A stretch of DNA of 54,128 nt from an uncultured Clostridia bacterium (lineage in GTDB: Bacteria > Bacillota > Clostridia > TANB77 > CAG-508): contig CALXQG010000001.1 of the NCBI GenBank assembly GCA_944390515.1, positions 1 to 54,128 on the forward strand, in the 5' to 3' direction. The first letter of the stretch is position 1. The number at the start of each line of letters is the position of its first letter. A program made the translations under genes and the position numbers. The notes beneath the pieces are model-generated. The model made no database searches and had not been told where the DNA came from. It saw nothing but the letters and a program-made list of their open reading frames with translations. This document shows positions 8,802 through 13,999 of this stretch, piece after piece.

Positions 8802-8848
8802 TTTAATTTTTCCGTCCTTTCTAATTGCGTAATTTAATCTACCTCTGT

Positions 8849-8877
8849 ATTATATATAAAAATGTGAAAATTTGCAA
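8849..8877 (-). promoter_or_regulatory. sigma-A-type promoter dedicated to gyrA
   Basis: On the minus strand: TTGCAA (8877-8872), a 17-nt spacer, then TATAAT (8854-8849). Confidence 0.5.
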
Positions 8878-8902
8878 GCAAAAGGAGCTATTTTTTTCCG
8901 TT

Positions 8903-9619
8903 TTATGATAGCATTTTGGCTAATTCTAATTGTTCTTCTGTTAGATTAAAATTTTGTCCATTATTTTTTATTAAATTATGCAAGTTTTCTATAGTTCTGG
9001 CCTCTTTTATGGTGTTTTCTATAGGTAATAGTTCTTTTAGTTTTTCTTTTATCTTTTCATATTCTCTTTGCATCCCCTCAAAGTTCTTGTTATTGAAATA
9101 TTCTTTCCAATTATCCTCATATTTTGCTAATTTCTCACTGCTATTTATTTGTTTCATAAATTCATTTTCTATATTATTACTAACACTATCCATAATAGCA
9201 TCCTTTCCGTTACTTATTAAGTTTGCAATATTATTATCCAATATTCCAGAAGAAGTAGTTTTCTCTATTACTTTATCTAAAACTTCTGATACGCCATCTA
9301 TAATTCCTCCGCTCTTTATTGCATCTCTTGCTTGAGATATATCTTCAAATTTACCTGTAAAAATTCCCATAACACTTTTTCCTAAGTTTATTGCTCCCTC
9401 TATTGCTGTATTAATTCCTTCTTTAAGTCCTCCCTGCACTAAAGCATCTTTCACTTCAACAACACTGTCTTCAACAAAATCTGGAAGTATCATTCGCAAG
9501 CCCACATCTAAGACGGAATTTACTATTTTCCCCAATGTAGACTCTAAAAAGCTATTTTGTTCTTTTTCAGTAACTATTTCATTATTATTTTGTAAGTTAA
9601 TATTTTTTTCTAATTCCAT
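8903..9619 (-). CDS. hypothetical soluble acidic protein with no TM segment, last gene of the VirB4 module
   Basis: A 238-aa ORF co-oriented with the VirB4 block. I recognised no family. Confidence 0.6.
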   Translation of the reverse strand: MELEKNINLQNNNEIVTEKEQNSFLESTLGKIVNSVLDVGLRMILPDFVEDSVVEVKDALVQGGLKEGINTAIEGAINLGKSVMGIFTGKFEDISQARDAIKSGGIIDGVSEVLDKVIEKTTSSGILDNNIANLISNGKDAIMDSVSNNIENEFMKQINSSEKLAKYEDNWKEYFNNKNFEGMQREYEKIKEKLKELLPIENTIKEARTIENLHNLIKNNGQNFNLTEEQLELAKMLS

Positions 9620-9689
9620 AATTCTTCAATAAATAATAATTTATTATTTTTATATATTAAATTATTATCTTCTCCTTTCTTTTAATTTT

Positions 9690-10712
9690 TTATAATAATT
9701 TTAATTTATTATTTATAATTAAATATTCTTTTCTAATTTTTTTATTAATGAAATTACTTTTATTGTTTTTATTAATTAATTTATTATAACTATTTCTATA
9801 ATTTAATTCTCCCAAAATATTAAAATCATTAAAGATATTTTTTAATATTTTATATTCAATTGAATTAATATCTTTTTTATTAAAAACAATGCTAAATTTA
9901 TTTTTGTTTATATTATTTTCATTTATTAAAATATCTAGTAATTTTATTGATTTATTTATTTCCAACAAATTTGTCCCTGAAATAAATATTGTAATATTAC
10001 TAATATTTATTGAATTTTTAATTAACTCATAATTTTTTGAAGTATTATCAATAATTATAAAATCGTATTTATTTTTTAATTTATTAACTAATAAATTAAT
10101 TTGTTCTAACATTAAATTTGTTTTTAAATTATTATTACTTTCTAAAAACGAGTATATATTTAATAAATCTATTTTTTTGTTAATTTTAATAATATAATTA
10201 TTGAAGTTAATTTCTTCACTTATTATATTTAATATATTATTTTTCTTATTATTTTTATTTGGATAAATTGAGACACCAAAAATAGTATGAATAGAATTAT
10301 TTAATGAATCTAAATCAATGATTAAAATTTTGTTATTAAAGAGACTATTAATTTTTGATAAATTAACAGTTATAATACTTTTACCAGTTCCTCCAGGGCC
10401 AATTATAGAAATTATTTTGTTCTTATTAGGACTGCTATTTTTATTTTCTACTAAATTAATTAATTTGTATTTTTTTATTTTATTTATTATTCTATTTTTA
10501 TTAATAAATAATTTTTTATTTTTTATTTTGTTTATTAAATTATTTTTACTTTCTTTTTCTAATATTATCTTTTTCAAATTATTTATTTCTTCTTTTAAAT
10601 AATCTTCATTACATTTATTATTATAATTAATTAAATTTATTAAATCTTTAATTTCTATTTTATTATTATAAAATATTTTATAAGCACCTTTTTTCAATAA
10701 ACTTTCTTCCAT
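9690..10712 (-). CDS. ParA/MinD/CpaE(TadZ)-like P-loop ATPase, probably longer at the N-terminus
   Basis: The P-loop is IISIIGPGGTGKS. The frame stays open upstream of the tracked Met to about 11018. That extension reads like a receiver-type domain (DIDIIIISE...SEIKIIIFL). It contains no ATG, GTG or TTG. Confidence 0.7.
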   Translation of the reverse strand: MEESLLKKGAYKIFYNNKIEIKDLINLINYNNKCNEDYLKEEINNLKKIILEKESKNNLINKIKNKKLFINKNRIINKIKKYKLINLVENKNSSPNKNKIISIIGPGGTGKSIITVNLSKINSLFNNKILIIDLDSLNNSIHTIFGVSIYPNKNNKKNNILNIISEEINFNNYIIKINKKIDLLNIYSFLESNNNLKTNLMLEQINLLVNKLKNKYDFIIIDNTSKNYELIKNSINISNITIFISGTNLLEINKSIKLLDILINENNINKNKFSIVFNKKDINSIEYKILKNIFNDFNILGELNYRNSYNKLINKNNKSNFINKKIRKEYLIINNKLKLL

Positions 10713-11026
10713 TGTTTTATTAATTTTTTCTAAAAATATAATAATCTTAATTTCTGAATTAATCTTTTTTATTTTTTCAATTAATTCTTCTAGTTCTATA
10801 TTGCCTTGTATTAATTCACTAATAATTATTATGTCTATATCATCAAATTGCTCAATAAATTCTAATATTCCTTCTTTATATTGAATATCACTACATACAA
10901 CATTTATATTTTCATTATTCTTTAACTTATTGTTAATTTCTTCATTTCCTAGAGCTGTAATTATGTTTTTAATTTTATTTTGTATAATTTTTCTCCTTTC
11001 TTTTTTGTTCTTTTTTATTTAATTTT

Positions 11027-13524: not shown

Positions 13525-13562
13525 TATATTATTTTTTAATTTGTTTTTTGAATTTATTTCAG

Positions 13563-13690
13563 AAATAAGAAAAGTGGCTTCGCCACATGTGCATTTCGCT
13601 TCGCGAATATGCACGGTCCTAGGAAACTTAACCTTGTTGCTCCGGAAATTTCTAATGAAATTTCCTATGCAATAAAAAAGTGGCTTTATA
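13563..13690 (-). promoter_or_regulatory. structured 5' leader / candidate attenuator of the VirB4 module
   Basis: On the minus strand there is hairpin GGAAATTTC-ATTA-GAAATTTCC (13665-13644). A long hairpin GTGCATATTCGC-GAA-GCGAAATGCAC follows. Then comes GTGGC-GAA-GCCAC (13586-13574) followed by TTTTCTTATTT. I counted 38 G+C in the 72 nt at 13574-13645. Confidence 0.4.
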
Positions 13691-13734
13691 AAATGAATTA
13701 ATTTATTTTGAAAAAAATATATATTAATATATTA

Positions 13735-13789
13735 TTTATAACATATTAATTAAATATATGCAAGAAAAATATTACGACAAAATTCGACA
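13735..13789 (-). promoter_or_regulatory. sigma-A-type promoter with an upstream tandem Spo0A-box-like operator
   Basis: On the minus strand: TGTCGAATTTTGTCGTAA (13789-13772), an 8-nt gap, TTGCAT (13763-13758), a 17-nt spacer, then TATAAA (13740-13735). Confidence 0.5.
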
Positions 13790-13838
13790 TTTACTCATTT
13801 ACTACTACATAATTTTTTAAATGTTTTATAATCATAAA

Positions 13839-13911
13839 AAATATATACTTAGATATTTTCATAGAGCACGAATGTGATTGAAAAAATTTTATAGTTTCTA
13901 AGTATATATTT
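13839..13911. repeat. 15-bp perfect inverted repeat downstream of gyrB, possibly a large-loop terminator
   Basis: AAATATATACTTAGA (13839-13853) pairs with TCTAAGTATATATTT (13897-13911). The loop is 43 nt. Confidence 0.5.
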
Positions 13912-13999
13912 CTTTATGCTATTTTTAATAATTAATAATGTTAAATTTAAATTAAATTTTATTTTATATACTTACTTTATTTAATATTAATAAATTAAA

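Follow-up and report, generated by a model that had tools for sequence, protein, structure and literature searches.

The stretch of DNA analysed here, 54,128 nucleotides from an uncultured Clostridia bacterium (contig CALXQG010000001.1, positions 1 to 54,128; hereafter the window), contains a gyrB gene and a gyrA gene separated by a gap of 5198 nt (8802-13999) that holds four co-oriented open reading frames (ORFs), g1 to g4. We think it probable that this 5.2-kb block makes up half of a type IV secretion system (T4SS) that descends from a conjugation machine and was domesticated long ago. The system is of monoderm type, related to the mating-pair formation class MPF-FATA, and would by now be inherited vertically, as a fixed part of the chromosome, throughout a large clade of gut Clostridia that form spores and have small genomes of low GC. 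The first two genes encode the VirB4 motor in two pieces. Across approximately 80 species the gene order of the block, its intact frames and its catalytic motifs persist under purifying selection. A first-pass annotation, made from the sequence alone, had reported that four genes spanning about 5 kb uncouple gyrB from gyrA, and the ORF layout and the Pfam matches agree with it down to the coordinates; the gyrB-gyrA operon is otherwise near-universal in Firmicutes.

The window is the oriC neighbourhood of an AT-rich Firmicute (approximately 25% GC). On its minus strand, dnaA (18833-20224), dnaN, recF, remB and gyrB are followed by the four ORFs and then gyrA, gyrB being the final gene of the dnaA-dnaN-recF-remB-gyrB block. 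We place the origin here because DnaA boxes are clustered at 17.3-20.2 kb (17337-17378, 18566-18831 and 20217-20245) and because GC skew flips near 20 kb, as does the coding strand. Both gyrases are well defined by Pfam: gyrB (14000-15913, minus strand) by DNA_gyraseB (2e-65), Toprim and HATPase_c, and gyrA (6363-8801, minus strand) by DNA_topoisoIV (4e-171) and six GyrA_C repeats, or blades; they are 81-95% and 82-97% identical, respectively, to their counterparts in 80 related loci. Those loci were obtained by scanning one genome per GTDB species, which gave at least 278 relatives of g2, from which we analysed the best 80, at 72-89% identity. Their sources are uncultured Clostridia from the guts of chicken, rabbit, mouse, ruminants and humans; the loci represent at least 79 species and include Clostridium sp. 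CAG:567 and a circular 1.57-Mb metagenome-assembled genome (MAG).

Gene order around the block is conserved to a degree that is best appreciated from the 50 loci with sufficient sequence on either side, all of which have the full order dnaA-dnaN-recF-(remB)-gyrB-g1-g2-g3-g4-gyrA-dnaI-dnaD-o306-o116-o597 (the last three being genes beyond gyrA that are described below), while shorter loci show as much of this order as their length permits. gyrB lies upstream of g2 in every informative locus (66 of 66) and gyrA downstream in 55 of 60, with both gyrases on a single contig in 50. The linkage with gyrB must be older than this 80-species clade, because three more distant relatives (L085, L086 and L088, with VirB4 45-49% identical) also have a gyrB gene, itself 67-75% identical, at 2.4-3 kb upstream of g1-g2.

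The proteins of the block evolve at very different rates. Median identities to the window over the 80 loci are 85-86% for gyrA, gyrB and dnaN, 77% for g2, 69% for recF, 67% for dnaA, 59% for g1, 56% for g4 and 42% for g3. The ratio of nonsynonymous to synonymous differences per site (pN/pS) was taken against eight close species and overestimates dN/dS, since synonymous differences are near saturation; it is 0.04-0.09 for gyrA, gyrB and dnaN, 0.11-0.19 for dnaA, 0.12-0.18 for g2, 0.16-0.28 for recF, 0.19-0.28 for g4, 0.25-0.39 for g1 and 0.46-0.67 for g3. By median identity g2 is therefore better conserved than dnaA or recF, and by pN/pS it is comparably constrained; only g3 among the four genes is fast-evolving or weakly constrained. 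With respect to composition, GC content at third codon positions (GC3) is 0.087-0.206 for g1 to g4, within the range of the window (0.07-0.23), which rules out a foreign origin on codon usage. The contrast to the gyrases comes instead from the first and second codon positions, and so reflects amino-acid usage: Asn, Lys, Ile, Tyr and Phe together make up 62% of g3 (13.5% GC) and 57% of g1. Native genes share this richness in Asn, Lys and Ile (recF 46%, remB 48%), and the orthologues of g3 are equally rich everywhere. The same synteny, native GC3 and low pN/pS together indicate that the block is ancient, vertically inherited and selectively maintained.

The contrary explanation is that a fragment of an integrative and conjugative element (ICE) or plasmid, four genes long and of foreign composition, was acquired horizontally in the recent past and is now decaying under relaxed constraint. 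It could draw on the conjugative ancestry of the components, on the extreme AT and Asn-Lys-Ile richness of g1 and g3, and on three features described below: a VirB4 spread over two ORFs, a g3 without an ATG start in this strain, and a terminator-like repeat in the operon leader. We regard it as very improbable, given that the same genes occupy the same place in 80 species-level loci, with gyrB linkage reaching still more distant relatives, that GC3 is indistinguishable from that of the host and g3 is of similar composition wherever it occurs, that pN/pS is below 0.7 for all four genes and far lower for VirB4, and that the VirB4 split is universal, with a Shine-Dalgarno sequence before each half, and common in related elements. 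No direct (att-like) repeats bracketing 8802-13999 and no integrase were found. The first-pass annotation had taken the Asn/Lys/Ile-rich proteins as a sign of different origin or relaxed constraint. The richness is real, but it does not mark a different origin, being shared with recF and remB against a native GC3; relaxed constraint describes g3 and not VirB4, which is on a par with dnaA and recF. The same annotation had proposed checking synteny, and had named what would overturn its view: the same four genes across a broad clade, of ordinary composition and with known housekeeping functions. Breadth and ordinary GC3 are what we observe, and housekeeping functions are not, so this expectation is borne out by half.

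The arrangement is not absolutely fixed. In one locus (L059, 13642-21794) a short-chain dehydrogenase/reductase, dinB, a membrane protein and topA stand after g4 in place of gyrA, and another, L069, lacks g3. The gyrB-g1 spacer ranges from 182 to 6814 nt and contains unrelated accessory genes in some species; it appears as an insertion hotspot inside the block in L020 (2181-8995), L057 (4335-9365) and L018 (5457-8798), and in the first of these its 6.8 kb include, as judged by eye, ImmA-like, M14 peptidase, AbiEii-like nucleotidyltransferase, NUDIX and PNPOx-like genes. The g1-g2 and g3-g4 spacers are also hotspots in several loci, some of which have 1.1-1.5 kb between g1 and g2. Two separate contigs of the same MAG (UMGS1663; L067 and L081) each carry a g2 homologue, at 75-77% identity, and this pair could be a second copy, strain heterogeneity or contamination of the bin.

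The identity of the block rests on g1 and g2. g2 (11027-12871, minus strand) starts with TTG and encodes 614 aa that correspond to the C-terminal two thirds of the VirB4 motor ATPase. It aligns to positions 183-730 of the NCBIfam CD1110 VirB4 model (278 bits, 1e-82), matches Pfam P-loop_TraG (1e-20) and the VirB4 C-domain structure 4ag5 in the PDB (2e-45), and also scores 246 bits against the VirB4 model of mycoplasma ICEs. Its Walker A (GTSGAGKS) and Walker B (IYLDE) motifs are intact, so that it combines the two features by which VirB4 is recognised in the T4SS superfamily, intact Walker motifs and homology to the C-domain. g1 (12934-13524, minus strand) encodes a soluble protein of 196 aa that aligns to positions 1-147 of the same CD1110 model (E = 2e-10); it is annotated in precomputed sources as PF26593 TraC-like, is 35% identical to residues 23-204 of an unsplit, 849-aa VirB4 in the distant relative L084, and may be described as a free-standing VirB4 N-terminal domain of TraC-like or TrsD-like type. 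Since the two genes cover positions 1-147 and 183-730 of one model, we conclude that one VirB4 is encoded in two pieces. The first-pass annotation was right to place a VirB4-type ATPase among the inserted genes, with the correction that the first two ORFs are halves of one VirB4. Neither half reaches the cut-off of the CD1110 equivalog (NF045971, 325 bits), g2 scoring 278.4 and g1 39.7, nor does their sum of 318. The two are separate ORFs in 72 of the 72 loci that hold both, which rules out a frameshifted pseudogene or a read-through fusion; even in the nine loci where they lie in the same frame, a TAA codon and a downstream Shine-Dalgarno sequence intervene. Each has its own Shine-Dalgarno sequence, and split VirB4s are common in related elements. 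A reading of the block as a defence system was also rejected, for PADLOC matches only g2, and weakly (mad8, 70 bits; DndH) against 278 bits for VirB4; the PADLOC scan gave no match for the remaining proteins. In many species, L010, L019 and L041 among them, conserved N-terminal sequence of g2 extends up to approximately 150 codons before the first ATG, GTG or TTG.

What we consider to be the other half of the machine lies beyond gyrA, among plus-strand genes that are convergent with it: orf58, o597, o116 and o306, followed by replication genes of DnaD/DnaB type and DnaI type. o597 (753-2546, plus strand; 597 aa) is a VirD4-like type IV coupling protein (T4CP), with two N-terminal transmembrane segments, a Walker A motif (GTIGTGKT), and Pfam matches to TrwB_AAD_bind (4e-8, above the gathering score) and TraG-D_C (1e-4); it has the features expected of coupling proteins in the T4SS superfamily and shares 39% identity with its counterpart in the conjugative element L084. 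o116 (2568-2918, plus strand; 116 aa) resembles a VirB2-like T4SS pilin in having a signal peptide and two hydrophobic helices, with PF18895 (T4SS_pilin) as the sole or best match both here (E = 1e-4) and in five orthologues (8e-6 to 2e-3), and its homologue in L084 adjoins VirB4. o306 (2911-3831, plus strand) is a polytopic membrane protein of 4-5 transmembrane segments that matches no family, and is a candidate VirB6-like channel subunit; its homologues adjoin T4SS genes in L083, L084 and a Vescimonas plasmid. Finally, orf58 (580-756, plus strand) encodes 58 aa with a single transmembrane segment and is a candidate VirB3-like (VirB3/PrgI-like) subunit. It was overlooked by the gene caller, although its DNA is conserved in relatives, and it is translationally coupled to o597, its stop codon overlapping the start of the coupling protein (ATGA). 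The T4CP, pilin, o306, dnaD and dnaI genes (1-6315, plus strand) read towards the origin and hence head-on with replication, whereas 6363-20224 is on the minus strand. Essential replication genes of Firmicutes do not usually have the orientation seen here for dnaD and dnaI, which hints that an inversion long ago divided the T4SS cluster.

Where such a system came from can be judged from its deep relatives, which we sought in a library of VirB4 representatives at 50% identity. The entire clade falls to one representative, 73% identical; behind it come relatives with 45-53% identity and then ordinary VirB4s, which do not exceed 37%, while no plasmid VirB4 in PLSDB surpasses 36%. Among these relatives, L084 (logan SRR29457793_34055; VirB4 47%) is a conjugative element of 35% GC in which a fused homologue of g1 and g2 (35-47%) is clustered with homologues of o116, o597, o306 and g3, the last a receiver-plus-ParA protein next to RcpC. 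It differs from the window in carrying a relaxase, MobC, an M23 peptidase, ParA and RcpC, in its unsplit VirB4, and in having no gyrase genes nearby; g4 was not detected there. A g1-g2-g3 module followed by a T2SSE-family ATPase is found in both L083 (VirB4 53%) and L089 (36%), while L090 (36%) is an ICE-like element with a split VirB4. Because the closest unsplit VirB4 resides in a relaxase-bearing element with the same accessory genes, the ancestry of the system is mobile but ancient. The different origin suggested by the first-pass annotation thus survives as mobile ancestry in deep time, and not as a recent foreign insertion.

It might be argued that the machine is still mobile, serving a relaxase and oriT located elsewhere or a relaxase-independent chromosomal transfer like that of mycoplasma ICEs. 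The coupling protein, the score of g2 on the mycoplasma model, the relaxase in the element of the closest unsplit relative and the accessory-gene hotspot between gyrB and g1 in other species are all compatible with this. However, neither relaxase, MobC nor integrase occurs among the ORFs of the 54-kb window, and neither relaxase nor integrase was seen in the flanks (10 kb on either side) of the 80 relatives, as probed with the window proteins. Of the features that would identify an ICE, namely a relaxase or MobC, an integrase or att repeats, and a patchy distribution or foreign composition, none was found. Given also the strict synteny with core replication genes, a divergence like that of the host and the remoteness of the best plasmid homologue, we consider continuing mobility quite unlikely, and a domesticated T4SS the better account.

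The third gene adds a component with a different affiliation. g3 (9690-10988, minus strand) encodes a TadZ-like, two-domain ATPase of 432 aa, as judged from an AlphaFold2 (AF2) model, Foldseek and the lengths of its homologues. Its frame is open from 11018, and its orthologues start with MKKIITA upstream of the first ATG (10712); in this strain the start falls on ATT or ATA (10988 or 10985), immediately after a GGAGA Shine-Dalgarno sequence. The 120 full-length database homologues of 400-460 aa likewise start upstream of ATG 10712, and we take the real product to be approximately 432 aa, with a non-canonical ATT/ATA start, and longer than the ATG-initiated ORF. At the conserved Met position the codon is ATT in L045 and L066, CTG in L041 and L044, and ACG in L051, so to judge by codons at this position non-canonical starts look frequent in the clade. 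The AF2 model (pLDDT, the predicted local distance difference test, 74.7) comprises a CheY-like (beta-alpha)5 pseudo-receiver (1-121), in which Ser57, at the end of beta3, occupies the position of the phospho-acceptor Asp, a long, disordered, N/K-rich linker, and a ParA fold (190-432) of the ParA/MinD family with the Walker A motif GPGGTGKS. The catalytic columns are invariant in 64 sequences. Foldseek places 5tvk (a Borrelia ParA-type protein), 3fkq (aligned across both domains), FleN and MinD at the top, and 3fkq, from Eubacterium rectale, is known as TadZ. The modelled protein accordingly has the domains that characterise TadZ/CpaE, a receiver-like domain without the acceptor Asp joined to a ParA/MinD ATPase.

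This architecture raises the question of whether the apparatus serves uptake or forms a surface filament and does not export, either as a DNA importer like ComB or Ced or as a Tad-related pilus or adhesin in which g3 would act as TadZ. A T2SSE-family ATPase or RcpC does follow the g1-g2-g3 module in distant relatives (tad-type genes come after g3-like genes in L083, L084 and L089), a VirB2-like pilin is present, and import has been proposed for the analogous system of Patescibacteria (PMC12102498). Yet the window contains no other gene of a tad locus (TadA/T2SSE ATPase, TadB/C, RcpC/CpaB, Flp pilin or prepilin peptidase), no DNA-binding or competence partner was identified nearby, and the coupling protein, which is typical of export, is conserved. 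g3 itself departs from the TadZ/CpaE of Tad (Flp) pili in lacking Tad neighbours, in its long N/K-rich linker and its particular Walker A sequence, in its low median identity, and in being dispensable to at least one species. On balance we think an uptake or filament function improbable and prefer a T4SS that includes a TadZ-like ATPase.

The fourth gene, g4 (8903-9619, minus strand), encodes a conserved, all-helical, soluble protein of 238 aa that belongs to no named family (AF2 pLDDT 63.6). It has no match in Pfam, NCBIfam, PHROG or PADLOC, nor in plasmids by tblastn, and none of its 3083 homologues has a Pfam domain; it is a clade-specific helical protein.

Several observations count against the interpretation of this region as a complete and fixed secretion system. 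Five loci, one of them with dinB and topA in this place, extend for more than 6.7 kb after g2 without reaching gyrA, and g3 is missing from one species, represented by a MAG from sheep ileum (L069, 11779-11859). The PF18895 matches of o116 and its orthologues all fall just under the Pfam gathering score, and the case for o306 as VirB6 is one of topology and neighbourhood only. The AF2 model of g4 finds no significant Foldseek match in the PDB. Neither a VirB8-like protein nor a cell-wall hydrolase was detected in the window, so that the apparatus may be incomplete, or its remaining parts may be elsewhere. In this particular strain, moreover, the terminator-like repeat in the leader and the lack of an ATG in g3 could mean reduced expression.

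As to how the block is transcribed, a scan for consensus promoters is uninformative by itself in DNA this rich in AT (46 sites against 53 +/- 6 expected), and our support for promoters comes only from their conservation across species, by phylogenetic footprinting. The first-pass annotation had predicted a near-consensus promoter for gyrA, a separate promoter with an operator ahead of g1 and a large-loop inverted repeat after gyrB; footprinting upholds the two promoters, and the repeat is physically present. The gyrA promoter (TTGCAA-17-TATAAT, 8849-8877, minus strand) has a conserved counterpart, (C)TTGCA(A)-17/18-(TAG)TATAAT, in most of 55 species examined, usually 35-63 nt upstream of the gyrA ATG and in a few species 77-96 nt, and often directly after a hairpin and T-run that end g4. 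The promoter of the g1-g4 operon (13735-13789, minus strand) consists of two boxes, TGTCGAA (13789-13783) and TGTCGTA (13779-13773), separated by a 3-nt spacer (TTT) and followed by nine nucleotides, a -35 element TTGCAT (13763-13758), a 17-nt spacer and a -10 element TATAAA (13740-13735). As a composite motif, TGTCGAA-N3-TGNC-N12-15-TTGACA with up to 2 mismatches of 16 on the sense strand, it occurs upstream of g1 in 57 of 69 loci (39.5 kb searched), compared with 2 matches in the remaining 2.47 Mb of locus sequence; it is not present in the distant relatives L083-L090. Behind gyrB stands a large-loop, AU-rich hairpin with a U-run (13836-13914, minus strand; 18-nt arms, 94% complementary and 43 nt apart; z = -3.1 for the fold of 13825-13999), probably the gyrB terminator. 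As the block and gyrA each have a clade-conserved promoter, transcription most likely proceeds in three separate units, one with gyrB, one with the T4SS operon and one with gyrA, and the uncoupling of the gyrases is ancestral.

The tandem boxes invite a specific proposal. The sequence TGTCGAA is the 7-bp core of the 0A box, recognised in common by the Spo0A proteins of B. subtilis and C. difficile through G2, C4 and G5 (PMC3485338). Most loci have it exactly, as does the window at 13789-13783, and a consensus 0A box is thus conserved in orthologous promoters in the manner expected of a Spo0A regulon. Tandem 0A boxes with a 3-nt spacer are also the classical arrangement at abrB. A capacity to sporulate is suggested by spoIIR and by gerM-like and spmA/B-like genes in the window. 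Control of g1-g4 by Spo0A is what the consensus match would specifically imply, and a number of points weigh against it: the 2.2 Mb of sequence examined yielded no Spo0A C-domain, the second box is degenerate, the -35 and -10 elements with their 17-18 nt spacer look capable of constitutive activity, and the o597 operon has a conserved but different promoter without tandem boxes. The repeat might instead be the operator of another regulator, a CtsR-like repressor or a factor peculiar to the clade. The CtsR operator is a heptad direct repeat, (A/G)GTCAAA-NAN-(A/G)GTCAAA, and the 7-nt repeat with a 3-nt spacer has this same architecture; in a few species box 1 does read TGTCAAA, box 2 is often non-consensus for Spo0A, and the promoter already possesses good -35 and -10 elements. 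Against this, a CtsR heptad would need two mismatches per repeat, box 1 retains the bases contacted by Spo0A in most loci, the spacing is that of abrB, and the organism has sporulation genes. We consider a regulator other than Spo0A possible but doubtful. A third reading of the repeats, as DnaA boxes, was ruled out, those boxes being confined to 17.3-20.2 kb with none at 13.5-14 kb.

Similar modules occur elsewhere in the window. A second and perfect tandem-box module (TGTCGAATTTTGTCGTAAC...TTGACA; 41272-41330, plus strand) sits at the end of the spmB-like gene and is followed by a Shine-Dalgarno sequence and a hydrophobic and basic ORF of 40 aa (MKLLILFIIFFSLFILIRK...; 41368-41490), which may be a small sporulation or membrane peptide of the same regulon. 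The mnmE-mnmG spacer holds a third copy of TGTCGAATTTTGTCG (24385-24399, minus strand), with ACAAATTGTCAA after it; read on the plus strand, this copy closely follows a TTGACA, an arrangement that would suit repression of mnmG.

Between the operon promoter and g1, the 5' leader of this strain contains an element of approximately 105 nt with three hairpins (13565-13668, minus strand). The first-pass annotation was correct in noting a structured leader, the stretch 13555-13690 folding strongly (-39.5 kcal/mol, z = -4.3), but it is not a conserved regulatory leader. The element is absent from the g1 leader position in relatives and is a lineage-specific copy of a dispersed repeat: copies 87-92% identical lie in the gyrA-dnaI spacers of L008 (16715-16789) and L016 (16518-16593), in opposite orientations, and about 70 copies from gut metagenomes (among loci L091-L210) occur in both orientations, up to three per 15 kb. 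On these grounds a conserved regulatory RNA of the operon was ruled out. Compensatory changes affect 8 of the 27 pairs in the three hairpins. Two of the loops read GCGAAGC, CAACAAGGUUAAGUUUCC is conserved and single-stranded, and the 3' end is terminator-like, a hairpin (13586-13574) with a U-run that forms the only terminator-like site of the region. Rfam returned only tRNAs, both for the whole window at the gathering threshold and for 8700-14100 at E <= 5, leaving the leader without a counterpart among known riboswitches and leader families. The element could be MITE-like or PATE-like (a miniature inverted-repeat or palindrome-associated transposable element) or belong to a small RNA family; having landed in the leader of this strain, it might attenuate transcription there.

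To the right of the origin the window continues with rnpA, yidC, jag, mnmE, mnmG, rsmG, soj and spo0J and, further out, spoIIR and the GerM-like and spmA/B-like genes. Within this part, 2.2 kb that follow two tRNA genes (30160-32440) have 15-20% GC, A-rich low-complexity repeats and a single ORF of at least 50 aa, an unusually long non-coding spacer given the small genome.

In proposing how the system might work, we envisage a machine assembled in a single membrane, in which a VirB6-like channel and a pilin would be energised by a VirB4 hexamer, itself recruited by the free N-domain, and the coupling protein would deliver the substrate. g3 may position or license the assembly, as TadZ does for Tad pili. 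What the apparatus translocates would be a macromolecule, either protein or DNA, and its purpose would differ from the classical conjugation of plasmids. Phosphorylated Spo0A would switch the g1-g4 operon by binding the two 0A boxes that immediately precede the -35 element, linking the activity of these genes to stationary phase or to the start of sporulation, and the placement beside oriC may bring a benefit of gene dosage, as proposed for Patescibacteria.

The closest described system appears to be the T4SS of Patescibacteria (the candidate phyla radiation, CPR), which is relaxase-less, chromosomal, located near dnaA, dnaN and rnpA in small genomes, and composed of VirB4, TrsD (a homologue of the VirB4 N-terminus), a VirB2-like pilin recognised through PF18895, VirB6 and a T4CP (Quinonero-Coronel et al. 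2025, PMC12102498). The window has the same set of genes, with the pilin matches just below the gathering score: a VirB4 with a separate N-domain protein, a PF18895-type pilin, a coupling protein and a candidate VirB6-type membrane protein, again without a relaxase nearby, proximal to the origin and vertically conserved over a wide range. It differs in its host, a spore-forming Clostridia lineage and not CPR, in that gyrB, gyrA and dnaD/dnaI stand among its genes, which form two convergent blocks, and in an operon that includes a TadZ-like ATPase and g4 under a promoter with tandem 0A-type boxes. One may go further and imagine a relaxase-less T4SS switched by Spo0A and hard-wired at the origin, the monoderm counterpart (a sister, or even a donor lineage?) of the patescibacterial system, whose role, unrelated to conjugation, would lie in interactions with other cells or with the host, or in an exchange of macromolecules as sporulation begins; taken as a whole, this fuller scenario seems to us rather unlikely.

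A further comparison is with MPF-FATA systems (the CTn2/CD1110-type VirB4, and TrsD/TrsE of pGO1). CD1110 is the best family match, the 4ag5 fold and the VirD4-type T4CP are shared, and the division into N-domain and ATPase recurs in pGO1 (TrsD) and in related metagenomic elements. The clade differs in that its g2 lies below the equivalog cut-off, in the lack of a relaxase, hydrolase, VirB8-like protein, adhesin or integrase nearby, in being fixed in core-genome synteny with 36% identity at most to any PLSDB plasmid VirB4, and in possessing a VirB2-like pilin, which is normally absent from MPF-FATA (PMC12102498). Small monoderm systems put to other uses than classical conjugation have a precedent. 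The streptococcal type IVC T4SS is a minimal assembly of VirB1, VirB4, VirB6 and VirD4 carried on pathogenicity islands. It resembles the clade system in its small size, with VirB4 and VirD4 at the core and, in the clade, a candidate for the VirB6-like protein. It differs in its VirB1 hydrolase and in having no pilin, TadZ-like protein, split VirB4 or origin-proximal core synteny; it is mentioned in Fig. 6 of PMC12102498.

Our literature searches found no paper on this arrangement in Clostridia, and the genes of the block are unnamed in the public sources searched. We regard the system as a probably domesticated T4SS, proximal to the origin throughout a clade, that permanently splits gyrB from gyrA. 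It follows that the gyrB-gyrA operon, for all its ubiquity in Firmicutes, can be stably broken and each part given a promoter of its own. There is also a practical lesson, in that standard gene callers truncate the non-ATG genes of this clade, g3 being routinely mis-called for this reason. The conserved tandem 0A boxes provide a testable hypothesis that would link a secretion machine to the master switch of sporulation. Domesticated, non-conjugative T4SSs are rare and poorly understood, and the best-known example, that of Patescibacteria, is essential for an epibiotic lifestyle while having no known substrate. The system described here would be a second, independent case in which VirB4 has a separate N-domain, a VirB2-like pilin is present, a relaxase is lacking and the genes adjoin oriC. 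Its hosts, gut Clostridia that sporulate and have genomes of approximately 1.5 Mb, are abundant, and the finding may offer a comparative handle on the function of such machines and on the origin of the CPR system.

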